Below are positions 41,505-56,694 of a stretch of 64,000 bases of DNA, in pieces. The stretch's first letter is position 1. Every line of letters starts with the position of its first letter. The position numbers were made by a program, and so were the translations under genes. The stretch comes from Acholeplasmataceae bacterium (GTDB lineage Bacteria; Bacillota_I; Bacilli_A; Acholeplasmatales; Acholeplasmataceae). The notes under the pieces are model-generated. The model did not search any database. It was not told the origin of the DNA and saw only the letters and a program-made list of their open reading frames with translations. The DNA is taken from positions 768,001 through 832,000 of the forward strand of contig OY763415.1 of assembly GCA_963667565.1 (NCBI GenBank), in the 5' to 3' direction.

Positions 41505-42139
41505 TTTTTAGCCTCGATAAAATTTTTTTGTGAACGTTTAATTGCTACATATGTTAATATCACAAAGATAATTATACCAGAAGCAAGTACGATGAGTTGG
41601 TTAATAACACTTCCTTCAAGGAAACGACTTACTGTTGTATTGACTAATGTAAGATATTCAACAAAAAATGCATAAATAAGGGTTACTACAGCTGCAAAAA
41701 TAGCAGGTTTACCAAAGAAATAAGCAGTTCTATAATAATAAGGAAGAAATGTGATATTAAAAATACCATACATTAAAATTGCAAGCCCGAAGAGTGAAAA
41801 ATTAATATCTAATGCAAAATTATACGTACCATATAAATAATTATGTAGTAACCCAAATAAAATTGCAAAGAACACATGAACTGCTTCTAAAATAACAATG
41901 GCCATCACTCTTGATGAGACAAATGCTTTTTTTGATACTGGAAGTATCGATACAAAATTTTGATCTTCTTCTTGGTTATATGTTGCGTGCATATTTGGAA
42001 CGGTAATCCAAAAGAAATACATAAATACAAGCATGAAAAACCAATTTGGAATGAGCATCAATGCAGCTAATAATATAGGCAACATGAAGAAAAACTTATT
42101 AATGGATATAGATAATTCTTTATAGAGTAAATGTTTCAT
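41501..42139 (-). CDS. ABC-2 type permease
   Basis: About 6 TM helices; LPVSK motif; in an operon with the ATPase. Confidence 0.8.
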   Translation of the reverse strand: MKHLLYKELSISINKFFFMLPILLAALMLIPNWFFMLVFMYFFWITVPNMHATYNQEEDQNFVSILPVSKKAFVSSRVMAIVILEAVHVFFAILFGLLHNYLYGTYNFALDINFSLFGLAILMYGIFNITFLPYYYRTAYFFGKPAIFAAVVTLIYAFFVEYLTLVNTTVSRFLEGSVINQLIVLASGIIIFVILTYVAIKRSQKNFIEAKK

Positions 42140-47048: not shown

Positions 47049-47261
47049 TTAATTTGCTTTTACTAAATCATTATACTCAATTAAAAAGCCTAAATCATTT
47101 ATCAATCCTAAATATTTATCAGTATGATTATAATTTTTGCCATCTTCAAGACAATCACAATGAAAGATTTAAATGTTTGAAGGCATTTGTAGCTGTTTTG
47201 ATTTCCAATATGGAATAGATAATGTACCACAAGGATTTTTAAGATAATTAGCTAAGTTCAT
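47049..47261 (-). pseudogene. Truncated gene remnant, possibly a GNAT N-terminus
   Basis: ATG overlaps the RelE stop (TAATG); MNLANYLKNPCGTLSIPYWK...NI is followed by an in-frame stop and a short continuation. Confidence 0.4.
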
Positions 47262-47524
47262 TATTTATAAATATCCTTTCTATGACCAAAGTCAATTAGC
47301 AAAATAACCAACCTATCATCTACTATGTTTGCTAAGATTCTATAGTTTCCTACACGATATCTCCAAATCCCTTTTTTGTCATGAGACAACCCTTTACCAT
47401 GAATTCTAGGATTGTCAGTACCCTCTAGATGTTTTTCAATCCATGCTAGAAGCATCCTGGCAATTGATTTATCTAATTGTTTTAGATTTTTTAATGCTTT
47501 TTGACTAATCTCTACTTTATACAT
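47261..47524 (-). CDS. relE: Type II TA toxin, RelE/StbE family
   Basis: A.K.LKQLD, NPR.HGK.L, WRYRVG.YR and GHRKDIY motifs. Confidence 0.93.
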   Translation of the reverse strand: MYKVEISQKALKNLKQLDKSIARMLLAWIEKHLEGTDNPRIHGKGLSHDKKGIWRYRVGNYRILANIVDDRLVILLIDFGHRKDIYK

Positions 47525-47526
47525 TA

Positions 47527-47745
47527 TTAAAAATCCAGAATTTTCTTAGCTTCTTCAAGTGTGTAAGTTTTGGGATTTGCTTCATACTCTTTATATGCTT
47601 CTTCGTATAAAAAGATATCAAATTCATCTTCGATTTTAGATAGAATTGCTTGTCTCATCACTTCTGAAACAGTTGTTCCGTTTAATTCAGCATACTTTCT
47701 AATTAGTTCTGATTCTTTGTCGCTTAATCTTATTGAAATGCTCAT
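47527..47745 (-). CDS. Type II TA antitoxin, RHH (DUF6290/RelB-like)
   Basis: ISIRLS..E..LI..YA...G.TVSE..R.AI..KIEDE.D; lies directly upstream of the toxin. Confidence 0.88.
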   Translation of the reverse strand: MSISIRLSDKESELIRKYAELNGTTVSEVMRQAILSKIEDEFDIFLYEEAYKEYEANPKTYTLEEAKKILDF

Positions 47746-48053: not shown

Positions 48054-48281
48054 TTATTCTTCAGAATCATGTGAATTACTTTTTTTGTATTGCAAATATG
48101 AAACAACTGCAACTATAGATCCGCCAATTATGGCAATTAGTATTGATTTAAATATAAGATCACTTGAAAAAAAACCACCAGAATCGCTGACATCAGCTGG
48201 AAATAAAATTCCAATAATAATTGAAAATATGGCAACAAAAACAAGTGCTTTCTTATTAGCTTTAAATGCTCTTTTACTCAT
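48054..48281 (-). CDS. Putative immunity protein B (2 TM, 75 aa)
   Basis: Small hydrophobic ORF with a GGAG RBS directly after precursor B. Confidence 0.6.
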   Translation of the reverse strand: MSKRAFKANKKALVFVAIFSIIIGILFPADVSDSGGFFSSDLIFKSILIAIIGGSIVAVVSYLQYKKSNSHDSEE

Positions 48282-48291
48282 GATACCTCTC

Positions 48292-48687
48292 CTAACCTAA
48301 TCTTAAATTAACATTTGGAATCAATATTCCTGATGCGACAGTAAACACAGCATCGTATGCGTGTCCAGCTAAATATCTAGCTGCTTGTGAGGCAATATAT
48401 CCAATTAATGCTGTTACTGCACCTGCTGCAAAAACTGATATTGCTGCCATACCAACTGGCCCTAGAGAAGTAGAGACTAAAAGCCACATTCCTACAGCTA
48501 GTGTTATTTTAGGAGCTAAAAACATTCCTACGACAGCTGTCGTACCACCTCCAGCCATGATACCAGCAACATCCATAATTACATCACGTGATATGATTAT
48601 GTTAATTTGTCCTCCTCCATTCACTTCATACATTTCTTCTTCACTCATGAGTTCCCATGAGTTATCTAATGTCATTGCGTATGTCAT
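48292..48687 (-). CDS. Double-glycine leader bacteriocin-like precursor B
   Basis: Leader MTYAMTLDNSWELMSEEEMYEVNGG followed by a hydrophobic Gly/Ala-rich core of about 106 aa. Confidence 0.85.
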   Translation of the reverse strand: MTYAMTLDNSWELMSEEEMYEVNGGGQINIIISRDVIMDVAGIMAGGGTTAVVGMFLAPKITLAVGMWLLVSTSLGPVGMAAISVFAAGAVTALIGYIASQAARYLAGHAYDAVFTVASGILIPNVNLRLG

Positions 48688-49251
48688 ACTCTTTCACCTC
48701 TTATTCTATCACCTTTTATCTTTATCATAAATCATTTTTTCATATAGATATTACATAAAGTCATTATTGTTAGTGATCAGCTAACTTATATGATACTTCT
48801 GATTGATGATCCCTCCACACCGTAGACCTGTGATGAGCCCCCATAAATCGTATTAACTCACTTGAACATAAACCTCAAGTGTTACTTCATTTTTCTTATT
48901 CTTCTTCTTACTCTTTTTATCAATGAGCATAACTTGATGAACCGGTCCTATTGAATTTAGTTCATTTTTCTTGATGTATGCATTAACATCCCCTATATTT
49001 TGAATACACACATGGTGTTATCTTATAGTTATCGATATATAGATATTGATGATTGCCCTTGGTCGGTTGATTCATCTCAACATAGATATCCATGACTAGT
49101 TTTTGTTTGCCTGTCTCAAAGTTAAGTCTTTTAGTAATGGTTAAGACTTTATCTACCTTAACCTTATCTTTTGAGCTTGCAAATGAAATCATGGATTCTA
49201 TTTTTTCATCGAGTTCATGACTATATATCACACAACTATGTTTCAATAGAT
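48613..49251. repeat. Segmental duplication, copy B (about 640 bp; partner 50087-50755)
   Basis: Near-identical to 50087-50755: gene fragment, intergenic region and leader. Similarity stops at the GG codons. Confidence 0.95.
48853..49251 (-). pseudogene. Pseudogenised copy of the 50325-50795 gene
   Basis: Lacks the first ~13 codons and the RBS; an internal deletion of about 32 nt near 48988 shifts the frame. Confidence 0.88.
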
Positions 49252-49297
49252 GCGGTTATCAAGTTAGTTATTACCAATGTAGCCGTTTTTGTGATAT

Positions 49298-49351: not shown

Positions 49352-49768
49352 TTAAAATATGAAAATTAATATCACAGAAATTACAGTCAGTAATATTGCC
49401 GGTATCATAAGTTTGTTAACAATCTTAAAATCTCTTTCAATATCGATTACATCCATATCATGCTGTTTTCTAATGATTGAATTTAATGTATGGATAAATT
49501 CTATCGCCATAATAACTCCGATTGAAAAGTATGTCCACACCATACTATAGTTAACATCAAGTAACTTAGCAGGATAATAGAAAAAAATTAAATTAAATAG
49601 TGTAACCAACAAATAGAGTAAGTATATCCATAAAATCTTTTTGTGTATAAAGTTTTTCTTAAAAATGTTCTGAAATGCTATATGGAAATGACCTTTGTAA
49701 GATAACCATATAGTAGTAAAAAATGAAATTAATAATGCAAAAATATATAGAACAATTCCTAAATACAT
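49352..49768 (-). CDS. Putative immunity protein A (4 TM, 138 aa)
   Basis: Hydrophobic ORF with a GGAGG RBS directly after precursor A. Confidence 0.6.
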   Translation of the reverse strand: MYLGIVLYIFALLISFFTTIWLSYKGHFHIAFQNIFKKNFIHKKILWIYLLYLLVTLFNLIFFYYPAKLLDVNYSMVWTYFSIGVIMAIEFIHTLNSIIRKQHDMDVIDIERDFKIVNKLMIPAILLTVISVILIFIF

Positions 49769-49789: not shown

Positions 49790-50161
49790 TCAAGGTCCCC
49801 AAACTGAATATAAAGTCACATCAGTTCCAAATACTGTAACACCACCAAAATAATTAGTGACACTTCCGCCAGCTAAAAAGGAAGTCGCTATGATTAACAT
49901 TGTCGCTGCATAATAAATGGCTACTTGAGGTCCAATAACTTTGATTGCCATATCAACAAATGCTTTTGCTCCAAGTGCTGACAGTGCAGAAGCGGTTAAA
50001 CCTGCAGCTCCACCCAGAGGCACACCAACTCCCACTAATGCAATAAATGCTCCTAAAATATTTGTATAGGTAATGGAATCACTCCACCCACCATTTACAT
50101 CATACATTTCTTCTTCACTCATGAGTTCCCATGAGTTATCTAATGTCATTGCGTATGTCAT
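49790..50161 (-). CDS. Double-glycine leader bacteriocin-like precursor A
   Basis: Leader 24/25 identical to precursor B; hydrophobic core of 98 aa unrelated to core B. Confidence 0.85.
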   Translation of the reverse strand: MTYAMTLDNSWELMSEEEMYDVNGGWSDSITYTNILGAFIALVGVGVPLGGAAGLTASALSALGAKAFVDMAIKVIGPQVAIYYAATMLIIATSFLAGGSVTNYFGGVTVFGTDVTLYSVWGP

Positions 50162-50755
50162 ATTCTTTCACCTCTTATTCTATCACGTATTTTCTTTTAT
50201 CTTCAATCATTTTCTCATATAGATGTTACATATAGTCAATATTGTTAGTGATCAGCTAACTTATATGATACTTCTGATTGATGATCCCTCCACGCCATAA
50301 ACTTGTGATGAGTTACCCATAGAATTAACTCACTTGAACGTAAACTTCAAGTGTTACTTCATTTTTCTTATGCTTCTTCTTACTTTTTTTATCAATAGGC
50401 ATAACTTGATGAACTGGTCCTATTGGATTTAGTTCATTTTTTTTGATGTATTCATTAACTTCTCTTGTAGCCATTGAAGCATTTTGTGGATGCCCTTTAT
50501 ATTTTGAATACACACATGGTGTTATCTTATAGTTATCGATATATAGATATTGATGATTGCCTTTAGTTGGTTGATTCATCTCAACATAGATATCCATGAC
50601 TAGTTTTTGTTTGCCTGTTTCAAAGTTAAGTCCTTTTGTAATGGTTAAGACTTTATCTACCTTAACTTTATCTTTTGAGCTTGCAAATGAAATCATGGAT
50701 TCTATTTTTTCATCGAGTTCATGACTATATATCACACAACTATGTTTTAATAGAT
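50087..50755. repeat. Segmental duplication, copy A
   Basis: Partner of 48613-49251. Confidence 0.95.
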
Positions 50756-50795
50756 ATTTAAGTTCTAGTGTTTGACCTACCTCTACAAATGACAT
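50325..50795 (-). CDS. GyrI-like/DUF5085-like small effector-binding protein
   Basis: YSKYKG.P......EVNEYIKKNEL.PIGP...EVYV pattern resembles GyrI-like domains. Confidence 0.55.
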   Translation of the reverse strand: MSFVEVGQTLELKYLLKHSCVIYSHELDEKIESMISFASSKDKVKVDKVLTITKGLNFETGKQKLVMDIYVEMNQPTKGNHQYLYIDNYKITPCVYSKYKGHPQNASMATREVNEYIKKNELNPIGPVHQVMPIDKKSKKKHKKNEVTLEVYVQVS

Positions 50796-50803
50796 GATCT
50801 CAC

Positions 50804-51838
50804 CTACTCAAAGATCCATAGTTCAAGTTTTTCAATCGCCCAGAATAAATATCTTTGTTGATCTACAATCATTCTGCCCTGTACTTGCATACCAATAAGT
50901 ATATCCTCATCTTGGAGTGATGTTTCATTAAGTCTTGCTGTTACGATATAAAATGATTGTCCACTTTGCTGATCAACACGACTATCTGATTCTATTGAAA
51001 TTATTTCAGCACTTGCATACCCATAAGTTCTAGGTGATAATGCTGGAATCTCAACTCTTACATGTTGTCCGACTTCTATTTTTGCGATATCACTATTTAA
51101 TACATAAAACTGCACTTCTAAAGTATCATTTATTTCTTCATATACTCTTAAGAGTTCATAACCTGCTTGAATCGTAGAACCAACTGATACAGGATTTGTA
51201 AAATGAATAACACCAGAGTAGTTTGCATATACTTTGTAATTTGATAATTGATTTTCTAGTTTTGATATCTCGTTTTCATATTGTGTCATGGTAGCGTTCA
51301 TTTGATCCATACTACTTGTAAGTGATGCAATCTTTTCATTTTTAGTACGTTCTTGATCTTCTGAATTTGCATATGCATCTAAATATGCATCCATTTCATA
51401 ATATTTAGTAATCTGTTCAACTACATCTAAAATAAATAAGTTCTCATTATTTTCAACAGACTCTAAATATAGTTCTTCTAAGATAAGATCATCTTGATAG
51501 TTAGATAGTGCATTTGTGTAATTGAGTATATCTGTCTCTATTTCAGATCCGTCAAGTTCTAAGATAAGATCACCTTCTTGAACCGAATCTCCTTCTTTAA
51601 AGTAAATGGCTTCAACTCTACTATTAACAAGTGGTGTTACGATTTGAATGTTTTCTGATTCAACACGACCACTTGCTTGTACAACAATTTCTTTTTCTCC
51701 AAAATAACTCCACACGAGTAATAGAGTTATAAGTGTTAACATAAAATAGAAAAACCACAACATGAATCTTGGGACTTTATGTTCAATGACTTCTCTTGAT
51801 TCGGACAAATCATTAAAATCTATAATTTTACCTCTCAT
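50804..51838 (-). CDS. HlyD-family (LcnD/ComB-like) secretion accessory protein
   Basis: N-terminal TM helix, EGDSV.EGD.I lipoyl-like motif, coiled coil, GM....I. Confidence 0.9.
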   Translation of the reverse strand: MRGKIIDFNDLSESREVIEHKVPRFMLWFFYFMLTLITLLLVWSYFGEKEIVVQASGRVESENIQIVTPLVNSRVEAIYFKEGDSVQEGDLILELDGSEIETDILNYTNALSNYQDDLILEELYLESVENNENLFILDVVEQITKYYEMDAYLDAYANSEDQERTKNEKIASLTSSMDQMNATMTQYENEISKLENQLSNYKVYANYSGVIHFTNPVSVGSTIQAGYELLRVYEEINDTLEVQFYVLNSDIAKIEVGQHVRVEIPALSPRTYGYASAEIISIESDSRVDQQSGQSFYIVTARLNETSLQDEDILIGMQVQGRMIVDQQRYLFWAIEKLELWIFE

Positions 51839-54003
51839 TTGAAATCACCCCCTGTTTGACTCATCCATAATCGATAATATTTTTCTTTTTTATCAATGAG
51901 TTCAAGATGTGATCCAAACTCAACAATTTGTCCACTTTCCATCACTGCAATTTTGTCTGCTCTACGGATTGTGGATAATCTATGTGCAATGACGATTGAT
52001 GTTAAATCTTTATAATCATTTGATAACACATTTGTAATCGCTTCTTCTGTATGTGCATCTAGATTAGAAGTCGCTTCATCTAAGATTAATACACTAGGTT
52101 TTTTAAGAAGTGCTCTAGCAATTGCAAGTCTTTGTTTCTGTCCACCTGATAAATTTGCACCACCTTCAATTAAAGGTGATTTATATTTTTTAGGTAATGC
52201 TTCAATAAAATCATCAATCTTTAATAATTTTGATACGCGTCTCATTTCTTCAAAATCAACTGCTTCTCCACCTAAAAATAAGTTTTCCTCAACACTTCCA
52301 CTAAATAAGAAAACATCTTGAGAAACATATCCAATATGTTTTCTTAAAGATGATCTATCAATAGATTCAATAGGCATTGAATCTACTAAAATTTCACCTT
52401 TTTCTAATGTATATAGATTAAGTAATAGTTTTGCAAGTGTCGTTTTACCACTCCCTGATTCTCCAACAATGGCGATGGTTTCACCCTGTTTGATATCAAG
52501 CGATAATCCATTTAAGACTAGACGTCTTGTCCCATATCTGAAATCTATGTTTTGAATACTGATATCACCTTTGATTTTTTCCGGTTGATATTTCTTATGT
52601 TCATCATCTTCGTATTCTAAATCAAGATCAATAATTTCTGATAAACGTTCAGCTGCAACGACTGCGGTTTGTATCTGCTGTTGCAGTCCAATGAGGTTTT
52701 TAAGTGGACTTAAGAAATAAGCAAGTAATGCATTAAATGTTAAAAGTTGTCCTAAAGTAATCTCTCCACGAATAACCATTAATGCGCCATACCATAAAAT
52801 AAATAATCCACCAAGTGCTTCAACAACACCGATTAAAGATCCTTGTACGTTACCTAAGATTGCGCCTCGTTTACCTATTAAAGTACTTTTAATATATCGA
52901 TGCTCAGTTTCTAACTCTGCATCACGCTCTGCATTAAATGCTTTAATCGTTTCTACACCATGAATACTTTCGATTAAGTATGAACTCACCTTTGCTCCTT
53001 GTTCCATTGATGCTCTTTGTATCTTTTTAATTGGTTTAATAAAACCATAGACCAAAATACCATATAAAATTGCGATGATGACCGTAATCATAAACATGGT
53101 TGGATTTATCGAATATAATATGATTCCCCCAAAAATAACCATAAGGCTATCTAACATAATGGTCAACGCTGCACCAGAAACTGTATCTTTAATCACTCCA
53201 GCATCTTGAAATCTAGATGTGATTTCTCCTATTTGCCTCGTTGAAAAGAACTTAAGTGGTAGTTTAGCCACGTGCCCGTAATATCCAAGCATCAAAGGTA
53301 TATCTAATCTAATCGATAAATACATTAAAAGATGACTTCTAAATGCATTTAAAATAATTCTAAGTAAATATAAACCGACAAACGCAATCGAAACGACATG
53401 TAGTGTACGTTCTAAGCCGTATGGAATAATTTCATCCATTAAAAATTTAAAATAAAAAGAGCTGATGATGCCAAAAATAGTTAAGACAATACTCATCAAA
53501 AATACATTAATCATTAAATGTTTTTGTGGAATAAGCATCTTAAAAAATCTTGTGAAAACGCCCTTCATCTCATTTCTCTTTTCAAAGACTTCTGAAGGTT
53601 TTAATACAATTAAATATCCAGTCCACATGCCTGCAAACTCATCAAATGATAATTTTCTCAATCCTTTAGCTGGATCTGCAATAATCACTTTCTTTTTATC
53701 AATCTTATGAATCACAACATAATGTTGTAAACTATCTTCTGTTAAAACATTTGCAATCGCTGGTAATGGAAATTCAGTTAAGAGATTTTCTCTTGTGCCT
53801 TTGACTGCTTTAGCTGAAAATCCTAATTCCTCAGCTGCTTTTACAAGCCCATAGACATTATTACCATATGAGTCTGTTCCCGCAATGTCTCTAATTTTAG
53901 ATAATTGTAGTTTTTGTCCATATGTTTTACTAATTGTAGCTAGACAAGCAACCCCACAATCCTTTTGATCATGCTGTTTGATACAAATATACTTTTTATG
54001 CAT
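51835..54003 (-). CDS. Peptidase-containing ABC transporter (C39 PCAT) for bacteriocin export
   Basis: QHDQKDCGVAC, HYVV and ADPAKG catalytic residues; TM domain; GESGSGKTT, LSGGQKQR and LDEATS motifs. Confidence 0.96.
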   Translation of the reverse strand: MHKKYICIKQHDQKDCGVACLATISKTYGQKLQLSKIRDIAGTDSYGNNVYGLVKAAEELGFSAKAVKGTRENLLTEFPLPAIANVLTEDSLQHYVVIHKIDKKKVIIADPAKGLRKLSFDEFAGMWTGYLIVLKPSEVFEKRNEMKGVFTRFFKMLIPQKHLMINVFLMSIVLTIFGIISSFYFKFLMDEIIPYGLERTLHVVSIAFVGLYLLRIILNAFRSHLLMYLSIRLDIPLMLGYYGHVAKLPLKFFSTRQIGEITSRFQDAGVIKDTVSGAALTIMLDSLMVIFGGIILYSINPTMFMITVIIAILYGILVYGFIKPIKKIQRASMEQGAKVSSYLIESIHGVETIKAFNAERDAELETEHRYIKSTLIGKRGAILGNVQGSLIGVVEALGGLFILWYGALMVIRGEITLGQLLTFNALLAYFLSPLKNLIGLQQQIQTAVVAAERLSEIIDLDLEYEDDEHKKYQPEKIKGDISIQNIDFRYGTRRLVLNGLSLDIKQGETIAIVGESGSGKTTLAKLLLNLYTLEKGEILVDSMPIESIDRSSLRKHIGYVSQDVFLFSGSVEENLFLGGEAVDFEEMRRVSKLLKIDDFIEALPKKYKSPLIEGGANLSGGQKQRLAIARALLKKPSVLILDEATSNLDAHTEEAITNVLSNDYKDLTSIVIAHRLSTIRRADKIAVMESGQIVEFGSHLELIDKKEKYYRLWMSQTGGDFK

Positions 54004-54018
54004 ACAATCCCTCTTTCT

Positions 54019-54309
54019 TTATACATGTGCGCTTAATTGAGTTTTTATGCATTGAAGCATATCATAACTCCTCATATGATCTTCTTTTTTAAACACGAAT
54101 CTATCCTTTTTTATCACATCTATATTGCTCTTATACCACTCGATAAGTTCTTTTATCACTGTAAGTAACTCATTTCTATTCTTGTCTTCACTCAACTCTA
54201 AAAGCTTATGGGCATTATTTTTTGTAAAGTTGTCTGTTGCATACTCCAATATAGATTCAGATATTGGTTCTTTATACAACAATAAGTAGTTGATGTTTTC
54301 TTTTTCCAT
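54019..54309 (-). CDS. Hypothetical 96-aa soluble helical protein
   Basis: ORF with an AGGAG RBS between the signal-peptide gene and the PCAT gene. Confidence 0.7.
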   Translation of the reverse strand: MEKENINYLLLYKEPISESILEYATDNFTKNNAHKLLELSEDKNRNELLTVIKELIEWYKSNIDVIKKDRFVFKKEDHMRSYDMLQCIKTQLSAHV

Positions 54310-54330: not shown

Positions 54331-54468
54331 CTATTGCTTTTTTCCGCTTCCAGGTAACACGTAACTGGGTGCTTTTAACTCTGATGCTGAAACTGTTGTT
54401 GTATTAAAAATTAATAGTGCATTAAATAATACAATAAAAATGATTAGATACGTTATTATTTTTTTCAT
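54331..54468 (-). CDS. Unannotated 45-aa secreted peptide; candidate RRNPP signalling propeptide
   Basis: MKKIITYLIIFIVLFNALLIFNTTTVSA|SELKAPSYVLPGSGKKQ; strong AAGGAGGG RBS; divergent from the HTH-helical regulator. Confidence 0.8.
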   Translation of the reverse strand: MKKIITYLIIFIVLFNALLIFNTTTVSASELKAPSYVLPGSGKKQ

Positions 54469-54556
54469 AGAAACCCTCCTTAGTTTTATGGTATAATAAA
54501 ACATCTAGAGGTTGGCGTGCCGATTTGACCCGTTTTTTTATGGAAGGGAGTCTACT

Positions 54557-55477
54557 ATGAAAATTATTCAAAATATCGCTACTGATATTGACACATTACG
54601 TATCAATAAAGGTTTAACTGTTTCTGAACTATGTTTCGAAATTTGTGATGAAAGTGCCTATAGAAAATATAAAACAGGTAAGCGAAATATTTCGATAGAT
54701 AAAATTAATTTATTTTGTAATCGTTTAGGTATTGGTCTAGATGAATTTTTATATAATTTAGTAACTAAAAACTCATTTGAATATGAGAGAATACAAAATT
54801 TATATTATGCACTTCAAGATAAAGATTTTGTATATATTAAAAAATCTCTTCCACACATTAATGTAAAAGAGATTAGTTCGGAAAAAAATCATATATTATT
54901 TAATTTTATTTTATATTCTTATCAGTATGAAACTAAAATCATAACTAAGACTGAATATTATTCTATGTTATCAGACTTATTACCTGTTCATAATGGATTT
55001 TATACTTTTAACGATATCTTAATTTTAGATAAACTGGCATGGCTTGAAATAGGCATTAAAGAATCAAAATCTTTAAAAGATCTACAAGCAATTTTACTTG
55101 ATACCAAAAAACTATATACTATAAGTGATAATCATATTACAATTGCTACTATTTTTGCGAGTGTATCTAATTTATTAACTAAATCAAAAGAATCATCTTA
55201 TGCAATGAAAATTTGTGAAACTGGTATAAATTATTGTAAAAAATATAGTATTACTGAAAATATTCATCACTTATATTATCTATTAGCATACAATCAATTC
55301 CGAGATAACAAAAAAGAAAATGCTATGGAAAATCTATCTATTGTTATTTCCATAGTTTTTTCAATGCAAGATAAAAAAGAATTCATGTATTTTATATCTT
55401 TAATTACTAAAGAATTTAATATGACAAAAACCATGGTTTATCAGATGCATCAATTATCATTGGAAAATTACTTATAA
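54557..55477 (+). CDS. RRNPP/Rgg/PlcR-like regulator (XRE HTH plus TPR-like helical domain)
   Basis: LRINKGLTVSELC..IC.ES.Y.KY..G....S HTH; A..IC..GI.YC......E...LYY.LA TPR-like segment; start MKIIQN after GGGAG; extended -10 TGnTATAAT at 54489-54497. Confidence 0.85.
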   Translation: MKIIQNIATDIDTLRINKGLTVSELCFEICDESAYRKYKTGKRNISIDKINLFCNRLGIGLDEFLYNLVTKNSFEYERIQNLYYALQDKDFVYIKKSLPHINVKEISSEKNHILFNFILYSYQYETKIITKTEYYSMLSDLLPVHNGFYTFNDILILDKLAWLEIGIKESKSLKDLQAILLDTKKLYTISDNHITIATIFASVSNLLTKSKESSYAMKICETGINYCKKYSITENIHHLYYLLAYNQFRDNKKENAMENLSIVISIVFSMQDKKEFMYFISLITKEFNMTKTMVYQMHQLSLENYL

Positions 55478-55988: not shown

Positions 55989-56077
55989 TGGCGGAGGAAA
56001 GGGGATTCGAACCCCTGCACCATCTCTGATCTACAAGCTTTCCAAGCCTGCCTCTTCAGCCACTTGAGTATTCCTCC
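55989..56077 (-). tRNA. tRNA-Ser(GGA)
   Basis: Long variable arm, anticodon arm CAGGC-TTGGAAA-GCTTG, GTTCGAATCC, CCA. Confidence 0.96.
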
Positions 56078-56079
56078 AC

Positions 56080-56156
56080 TGGCGCACTCAACATGAATTG
56101 AACATGTGACCTCAGTCTCCGGAGGACTGCGCTCTATCCAACTGAGCTATGAGTGC
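56080..56156 (-). tRNA. tRNA-Arg(CCG)
   Basis: Anticodon arm CAGTC-CTCCGGA-GACTG, D-loop TAGCTCAGTTGGATAGAGC, CCA. Confidence 0.95.
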
Positions 56157-56694
56157 ATGACATTATTTTAACATAAATTCGAATTACAGTTGCTTTCTAT
56201 ATGCTAATAAACAAAAAATATCACTTTTCATATTTGTATTATTACTTAAAGAATTAATTATTTATTTTAGTTCTTGATGACATTAATTAATCATCTAACA
56301 GCAATGATATTTATATATATGCATAAATTAATATACAAAATGGTATAATAAATTATAGAAAAAATTATGGATACATTTAATTTAATATTGCAATGAATAA
56401 CCTGTGAAAAATCGATATAGAATTTTCTTAAACATGTAACAATTATTTAAGAGATATTTGCATTTGATTTTAAATAGGTATGCTCTCATCTAAGTCTTTT
56501 CTTTATGCATTTGCATTAAGTTAGTAATAGCATGAATTCATATGCTGGTTTATTTTAAGTAACATAAAAAAATGAATTTTTTTCAAATCAAAGTCCATTA
56601 ATATCTTTCGCAAATATTGAAACTCTCTCTAATGTTGGTTCTACTTTAAAAATTCATATAGGATCAACAACAGAACCTTACTTTGGAGGCTATC

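Follow-up and report, generated by a model that had tools for sequence, protein, structure and literature searches.

A candidate three-gene RRNPP-type quorum-sensing module with a stand-alone SpbK-like domain in Acholeplasmataceae

The window, the whole 64,000-nt stretch of DNA analysed here, comes from a complete Acholeplasmataceae genome of 1.75 Mb, whose genes were read under translation table 11. An HTH regulator gene and a 45-aa open reading frame (ORF) lie divergently on either side of an 88-bp gap (54469-54556). The ORF is preceded by a strong ribosome-binding site (AAGGAGG, 54475-54481), begins with a Sec-type N-terminus, carries V-S-A at residues 26-28 and ends in a 17-aa tail. It opens a tightly spaced minus-strand run that continues with a 96-aa gene termed X, a C39 exporter gene, an HlyD-like gene and a 156-aa gene, at gaps of 21, 15, -4 and 8 bp, and downstream of the 156-aa gene follow two double-glycine precursors with a small hydrophobic gene behind each (Table 1). 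The peptide ORF, its divergent spacing from the regulator and its place at the head of an export gene run all agree with a preliminary description of this DNA. The bacteriocin region also contains a duplicated block (48614-49252 and 50088-50795) made up of the 156-aa gene, a spacer and a bacteriocin leader, in which the second 156-aa copy is frameshifted, and directly behind the bacteriocin island an RHH (DUF6290) antitoxin is paired with a ParE-family toxin (47261-47745). By eye, tRNA-like sequences were seen just downstream of the receptor gene (55990-56160), a possible island insertion site, and a look-alike of the 75-aa hydrophobic protein was seen as the divergent neighbour of a peptide-less receptor at another locus (L005).

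Table 1. Features of the receptor-propeptide locus and its cargo, in positions of the window.
Feature	Position	Strand	Evidence
RRNPP-type receptor gene, 306 aa, N-terminal HTH and degenerate TPR domain	54557..55477	+	HTH_3, family profile, model, Foldseek
Propeptide ORF, 45 aa, Sec-type signal, 17-aa tail with presumed pheromone	54331..54468	-	ORF, family alignment, enrichment versus control
Candidate operator, imperfect inverted repeat	54516..54532		Conserved block, palindrome position; binding inferred
-10-like box TGnTATAAT, putative receptor promoter	54489-54497	+	Scan lists site with TG
-10-like box TACCAT, putative peptide operon promoter	54488-54493	-	Overlaps receptor -10 box back-to-back (54488..54497)
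X, 96-aa four-helix protein, stand-alone SpbK N-terminal domain homologue	54019..54309	-	Profiles, model, context
Peptidase C39 ABC exporter, bacteriocin type; cargo	51835..54003	-	TIGR01193, 645 bits versus cut-off 524; Pfam
HlyD-like accessory protein; cargo	50804..51838	-	Pfam, NCBIfam
156-aa protein; cargo	50325..50795	-	Weak DUF5085 match, E 0.013, below cut-off
Double-glycine bacteriocin-like precursor 1 (25-aa leader, hydrophobic core)	49790..50161	-	Bacteriocin_IIc, E 6e-4, below cut-off
138-aa hydrophobic protein, putative immunity gene	49352..49768	-	Position; no significant Pfam/NCBIfam family
Double-glycine bacteriocin-like precursor 2	48292..48687	-	Behind duplicated, frameshifted 156-aa gene copy (48853-49246)
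75-aa hydrophobic protein, putative immunity gene	48054..48281	-	ORF list

Searched as a single sequence, the receptor matched HTH_3 alone in Pfam (E 1.4e-5), and the TPR models of Pfam and NCBIfam gave no match. A profile built from 34 receptor homologues matched PlcR over residues 5-265 (E 5.6e-13), followed by Rgg2 and kinesin light chain TPRs; the structural model (pLDDT 86.9) returned PlcR, ComR, Rgg2 and PrgX as the top Foldseek rows at 12-18% identity; and one homologue (P0011) carries PF18768. The TPR assignment thus rests on the family profile and the fold, the single-sequence models being silent, and on these grounds the data bear out the proposed RRNPP-type receptor with HTH-TPR architecture. 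By profile search the family is present in 85 of 172 Acholeplasmataceae genomes, with six matches in the window's genome and no match among 19 and 40 genomes of two genera; searching the genome contigs with the single receptor sequence returned no related loci. A 59%-identical homologue is labelled Acholeplasmataceae at its source, and the titled records with the cassette belong mostly to Acholeplasmataceae and Izemoplasmatales, consistent with the Mollicutes-type host that had been presumed.

Other members of the family differ in their surroundings. Two paralogues (G000:C1:960820-962172 and 967452-968066) face genes for long secreted proteins (450 and 204 aa) and no peptide, the first of them retaining the same type of operator sequence. 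A decayed copy with a split receptor and a frameshifted propeptide (G000:C1:1089650-1090827) resembles an intact pair at 931824-933011. A second receptor clade (G000:C1:487994-488914, minus strand, and about 40 loci) is apparently housekeeping and has propeptides with tandem repeats of the D-F-x-x-S-G-x-P-E type (up to 8), which in the order of genome G172 likewise have X behind them. At L139:2445-6308, where X is missing, receptor and peptide stand at the head of an NRPS-like gene (C, A, PCP, reductase), which is unusual for the family.

Divergent signal-peptide ORFs were called by one rule (a ribosome-binding site, a basic N-region and a hydrophobic core, with the start no more than 150 bp away and a length of up to 200 aa) at 124 receptor loci, which comprised the near-full-length matches among the 150 best listed (26 weaker ones lay outside) and further loci, with L004, L029, L030, L040 and duplicates excluded. 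Such an ORF was present at 90 of the 124 loci, compared with 5 of 1138 other genes of this genome; the same rule applied to all ORFs of at least 200 aa in the genome gave 8 of 1141, and three of these eight are receptor genes of the family. Within 400 bp, 92 loci had a divergent signal ORF with a ribosome-binding site; the 90 that pass the rule have offsets of 78-140 bp, and under the rule 34 of the 124 had no short divergent signal ORF. The Sec-type propeptide described beside this one receptor is therefore a conserved feature of the family. Its N-terminus has two lysines and a hydrophobic stretch, and of 19 aligned propeptides at least 90% retain the Ala where cleavage is predicted. Short motifs are repeated in 40 of the 90 propeptides, with a maximum of 8 copies of a 6-mer, while the window's peptide is single-copy. 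D-L-P occurs in the tails of relatives, and the tails track the receptor tree, which was built with FastTree. A frameshift origin of the window's basic tail, suspected by eye, was set aside, as the alignment shows in-frame substitutions.

We compared the pair with the five RRNPP criteria given in the available part of a published survey (PMC10075063). The propeptide has 45 aa (range 10-100 aa), the receptor 306 aa (range 250-500 aa) and the gene spacing is 88 bp (range -60 to 400 bp). The Sec-type signal was found by our own rule and the conserved Ala, where the paper uses SignalP, and the TPR peptide-binding domain by profile, fold and PF18768 in P0011. A search for opp genes, which had been proposed as a check, found OppA, followed by oppB, and the genome also encodes signal peptidase I.

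Comparison with three metagenomic loci (L144, L145 and L146) showed that the switch and its cargo have diverged to different extents. Their exporter, X and 156-aa protein are 96-98%, 85-96% and 92-96% identical to those of the window, the receptor only 67%, and the peptide tail ends in H-D-L-P-E-V-V-E-D. At the DNA level, the window and L144 share 58-80% identity over the receptor, the gap with the operator and the peptide, and 85-99% from 54300 (X) downward. Between these two loci the receptor differs by R37K, D44N, P46S, A48D, K51N and D55N in the HTH domain and by Y200F and N202S in the TPR domain, and the operator and tail differ together with them; the window and P0002 share changes in the HTH as well as Y200F and N202S. 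In the family profile, column 202 aligns with N201 of PlcR, which we take to be a peptide-contacting residue. Receptor, operator and peptide change as one unit, as a pherotype swap would give, and the receptor/peptide covariation that the preliminary description proposed as a check is thus present. The bacteriocin precursors of L144-L146 have the same leader and other cores; this conservation of leaders with cores that differ between strains suggests that bacteriocins are exchanged cassette-wise.

The inverted repeat is centred 56 nt upstream of the peptide ATG, at about -43 of the putative peptide promoter and inside the putative receptor leader. Both -10 boxes and the repeat block are conserved, also in position, in 10 close loci. 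Of 88 intergenic regions, 71 have the centre of the best palindrome 55-69 nt ahead of the peptide ATG, and in 80 the best palindrome exceeded the mean of 30 doublet shuffles; the promoter scan as a whole gave no excess (52 sites versus 50.6 in shuffles). A site at about -43 would be in an activator position for the putative peptide promoter, and the same site would sit within the receptor's own leader. At up to 3 mismatches the candidate operator is single-copy genome-wide, and the regulon of the receptor is therefore probably this one divergent promoter pair. An operator-like match at window position 41985 falls within a coding sequence and was discarded as a chance hit. Terminator-like hairpins were seen behind X in 16 of 64 loci, a raw count free of shuffle correction. 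In two metatranscriptome assemblies of one study, a relative's operon was covered from X to the 156-aa gene and into another peptide type (share 0.07); these contigs belong to a relative with another pherotype, and strand and transcript are not deducible from them.

We examined the context of X at 66 distinct loci, 59 of which had at least 500 bp upstream and were used for receptor context. X stood beside a divergent receptor in 57 of the 59, 51 of them also with a signal ORF, and two loci had neither; the best 30 loci from each wider X search were taken, so these context counts lean to strong matches. Strong X matches were found in 9 of the 172 Acholeplasmataceae genomes, compared with 85 with receptors, so that most receptors are without X, and all nine lie behind a propeptide beside a receptor. 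With a wider X profile, matches appeared in 43 of the 400 genomes sampled from the class, where one family has X almost throughout (22 of 23 genomes), and in 78 of the 158 genomes that belong to the order of G172. What lies behind X is variable. No co-oriented gene was found within 450 bp in 30 of the 66 loci (four of the 30 lie close to the end of a contig, and in at least one, L036, the rule overlooked a gene), and the other loci include defence genes (ThsB-like TIR with AbiH, PycC-like with AbiL, SIR2, HNH), radical SAM with MFS genes, very large secreted proteins and prophage genes. Judged by gene context, X is the constant partner of the receptor-peptide pair and the bacteriocin genes are variable cargo. 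The preliminary description, which had treated the module as a pair and passed over X, was incomplete in this respect. Its proposal of a switch for the bacteriocin operon held in part: the pair does head the export operon here and a candidate operator precedes the peptide gene, but a bacteriocin exporter follows X in only 4 of the 66 loci, and the genome-wide scan (up to 3 mismatches) found no second operator copy before the bacteriocin precursor genes.

The identities of X and receptor correlated with a Spearman coefficient of 0.75 over 45 pairs, a weak measure because kinship contributes to it, and 10 of 22 supported receptor splits recur. At short range the two part: X proteins 87-99% identical go with receptors 66-67% identical, X proteins 69-73% identical go with receptors 94-97% identical, and L144 and the window have X at 96% and receptors at 67%. 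From these comparisons, X appears co-inherited with the receptors but swapped independently of pherotype at short range. X-like genes also occur in tandem arrays or multiple copies (G638:C113:5031-6250 and C202:1503-2255; G205:C10:43000 and 49655), with seven X matches in genome G638, and in L152 and L161-L166 the peptide and X are followed by a 90-aa gene without a Pfam family and then a secreted protein of about 2250 aa.

X of the window matched positions 34-123 of the PADLOC spbK model (E 1.2e-10), the sole match of that model in the genome; among 14 control genomes the model matched in B. subtilis only. Among PDB sequences, SpbK (9phb) was the only significant match of the X profile, with E 1.5e-4 for the profile of close homologues and E 2.4e-14 for the wider one, some members of which may be closer to SpbK. 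X is modelled as four helices (pLDDT 92.2). It has no Pfam or NCBIfam family and no usable structure-atlas match; searches of its fold against PDB and viral folds gave nothing at E 0.001, and VIA-align returned generic bundles only (best Z 9.9, rmsd 2.6, 87 aligned). SpbK was absent from these fold-search results, perhaps, we presume, since its N-terminal domain is unmodelled in 9phb.

According to the available text of two reports, residues 1-94 of SpbK fold into a four-helix bundle and need no TIR domain to bind the clip domain of YonE, the SPbeta portal (PMC12847820, PMC11984713). F69 and F71 touch the portal, F9 and Y48 link one domain to its neighbours, and binding is lost in either double mutant, F9A/Y48A no longer binding the portal stably (PMC12847820, available text). 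X keeps the SpbK residues W56-Y57, F69, F71 and H76, having F71 and F73 at the places of F69 and F71, and has L11 and T50 at the self-association places F9 and Y48. Of 65 stand-alone copies, 64 have an aromatic residue at the F69 place and 20 have F at the F71 place, which is variable; at the Y48 place an aromatic residue occurs in 3 of the 65, compared with 13 of 16 copies that are fused. X, which stops after 96 aa, has no TIR NADase domain, and the next gene is the ABC exporter. On sequence evidence, X is a stand-alone homologue of SpbK's portal-binding N-terminal domain and is not SpbK, the sensor domain alone being present.

By sequence, X is matched by 119 clusters, and among the 39 longer matches scanned of these 119, many have it N-terminal to a TIR, DpnII-MboI nuclease or kinase domain. 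Besides TIR_2, fusions of the SpbK-like N-terminal domain were seen with effectors unlike the TIR of SpbK, namely CAP12/Pycsar TIR, DpnII-MboI nuclease, Ser/Thr kinase and N6-methyltransferase domains, and C-terminally with REase-ARP; the fusion proteins include P0109, P0119, P0132, P0138, P0148, P0151 and P0170, and are candidate portal-triggered defence systems. A tblastn search of plasmids and phages with an X-TIR fusion gave TIR-only matches and one unannotated full-length match.

Taken together, the locus is best explained as a three-gene RRNPP quorum-sensing module consisting of receptor, divergent propeptide and X, a reading to which we assign a probability of about 0.6; the autoinducing RRNPP loop within it is very likely. 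Very probably, the propeptide would be exported by Sec, cut after V-S-A and trimmed to a short peptide around the L-P motif, which Opp would re-import. By homology, it is highly probable that the peptide would then bind the TPR domain and that the receptor, seated on the inverted repeat at about -43, would activate the weak peptide promoter, the same site within the receptor's own leader leading to autorepression. The spacing of the genes makes it likely that the induced transcript carries the peptide, X and, here, the bacteriocin exporter genes, so that export would depend on cell density; separate promoters probably serve the bacteriocin precursors. The last step is tentative, with somewhat less than an even chance: effector-less X may bind the clip region of phage portal proteins and, at high density, would occupy the terminase/tail docking site and so hinder packaging. 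The loss of the F9 and Y48 residues weighs against simple portal binding by X, as does the fact that YonE is an SPP1-like portal (PMC12847820, available text), whereas the two prophages of this genome have PF04860 portal genes. These related prophages (G000:C1:895000-930000 and 972000-1004000) lie in opposite orientation and carry terminase, portal and recombinase genes, with three receptor paralogues between or beside them.

For X we favour portal binding, either as an output that would hinder packaging at high density or as an input that would feed portal presence to the loop, the two together standing close to even odds, over a domesticated modulator, a prophage decoy and an immunity protein. 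The input form, in which portal binding would alter receptor activity and the peptide would act as an alarm switching on the neighbours' defence or bacteriocin cargo, is by itself unlikely. The domain is the N-terminal sensor module of many effectors (TIR_2, CAP12-TIR, DpnII-MboI nuclease, kinase) and would therefore be a swappable input, and defence cargo is found in several loci; but the idea requires two interactions, both hypothetical, X lies downstream of the switch, which is the place of an output, and no X-receptor fusion occurs among the 39 longer matches scanned of the 119. Rather more weight, though still well short of an even chance, goes to X as a domesticated regulator, a descendant of the SpbK domain that would bind the receptor or its DNA complex as a feedback brake or co-factor and have no phage role. 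Its constancy beside receptor and peptide whatever the cargo, its frequent place as the last gene, its presence in 22 of 23 genomes of one family and the lost self-association residues all speak for this, as does, weakly because kin share it, the identity correlation of 0.75 over 45 pairs. Against it, X is not bound to pherotype, as the discordant identities of X and receptor show, and 64 of 65 copies retain the aromatic residue at the portal contact.

It is improbable that X is a decoy shielding resident prophage portals from SpbK-like abortive infection, in a module that serves a mobile element. In L133 the module does lie within a prophage that has terminase and portal genes, two viral contigs carry it as well, and receptor paralogues of this genome sit inside or next to its two prophage regions, but these are the only two viral contigs found, the genome has no full SpbK-like gene (the spbK model finds X alone), and no phage genes are present at the window locus between 30000 and 64000. 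More improbable still is that the small ORF is not a pheromone gene and that the regulator answers another cue: orphan receptors do exist in the family, yet signal ORFs are strongly enriched (90 of 124 versus 5 of 1138), propeptides carry tandem short-motif repeats (40 of 90, up to 8), tails follow the receptor tree, and receptor and peptide are exchanged jointly. The idea that X is a bacteriocin immunity protein and the module simply a bacteriocin switch has hardly any chance of being right. Its position before the exporter, its size of about 95 aa and its four helices would fit, but just 4 of 66 loci have an exporter following X, identity of X stays at 85-96% between loci with different bacteriocin cores, and sequence homology points to SpbK. 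In a comparison with pediocin-type four-helix immunity proteins, X had no Pfam/NCBIfam match and fold searches returned generic bundles only, an outcome that speaks neither way.

Among known systems, PlcR/PapR of the Bacillus cereus group is the best profile and fold match, and shares a Sec-type propeptide of similar size, an available Opp import route and pherotype-like joint variation. PapR forms pherotypes with a C-terminal heptapeptide built on a PFEF core, PapR7 being ADLPFEF (PMC6568020, available text), and D-L-P likewise occurs in the tails of the relatives here; the PlcR pheromone gene lies immediately downstream of the receptor gene (PMC9765709). In contrast, the present peptide gene is divergent and upstream, the receptors share 17% identity, the tail is without a PFEF core, there is a single operator site in the genome and no regulon, and a third gene, X, is present. 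In Rgg/SHP and ComR/ComS of streptococci, a small peptide gene is divergent to the receptor gene. With these the module shares the HTH and degenerate TPR fold, the divergent small gene and putative control of a neighbouring bacteriocin/RiPP cluster, and RRNPP receptors adjoin bacteriocin or RiPP clusters in streptococci (PMC10075063, available part). Unlike the short hydrophobic peptide that PptAB exports in Rgg/SHP, the propeptide here is of Sec/SPase I type, with 45 aa, an A-x-A-type site and a polar tail; no match to TIGR01716, the model of the Rgg C-terminus, was found (NCBIfam, E 0.1); and X is an additional gene. Of the proposed combination of an Rgg/SHP-like layout with a PapR-like propeptide, the divergent layout and the Sec-type propeptide stood and both subfamily tests failed: the pair would work like PlcR/PapR in an Rgg-like layout but appears to fit neither subfamily.

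SpbK of ICEBs1 (Bacillus subtilis) resembles X in its N-terminal four-helix domain, whereas X has no TIR or other effector, is changed at F9 and Y48, and would be co-transcribed with a pheromone gene. The arbitrium system aimR-aimP-aimX is a three-part RRNPP unit touching phage biology. The present unit is likewise three-part with a possible phage connection, but is mostly chromosomal, with a short receptor, a divergent layout and an SpbK-like third gene unrelated to aimX as far as tested. Tandem Phr/AimP propeptides hold 1 to 4 pheromone copies (PMC11343458, available text); the family here similarly repeats pheromone copies in one propeptide, but with up to 8 copies of a 6-mer.

Among the matches listed from the literature outside subscription papers, we found no RRNPP report for Acholeplasma, Izemoplasma, Acholeplasmataceae, Tenericutes, Mollicutes or Mycoplasmatota, and nothing joining SpbK with RRNPP or quorum sensing; the RRNPP surveys name no Mollicutes or Acholeplasma taxa in their main text or in the available part of their supplements. 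Within that literature, the statement that Mollicutes-like hosts have no characterised example holds. These results indicate that a real RRNPP variant exists in a group where none was found described, with an unexpected conserved third gene. RRNPP systems have been described for walled Firmicutes, and here they are common in free-living Acholeplasmataceae. The natural pherotypes and the propeptides with up to 8 repeats offer ready specificity pairs. The system also suggests a way in which silent bacteriocin, NRPS and radical-SAM clusters of these hosts might be induced. X is a free version of a domain for which sensing of phage portals was shown in 2025. Should X bind portals, it would give a new link between population sensing and phage defence and a small portal-binding family (119 clusters), of which the fused forms would be uncharacterised defence systems. 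The fixed SpbK-like third gene hints at such a link between peptide signalling and phage defence. We tentatively suggest that wall-less Acholeplasmatales and Izemoplasmatales may run a peptide loop with an effector-less portal-binding domain as its fixed output, a non-killing packaging block, or as its input, a phage alarm. If true, this would couple RRNPP signalling directly to a bacterial immune sensor, with the SpbK domain acting without an effector.
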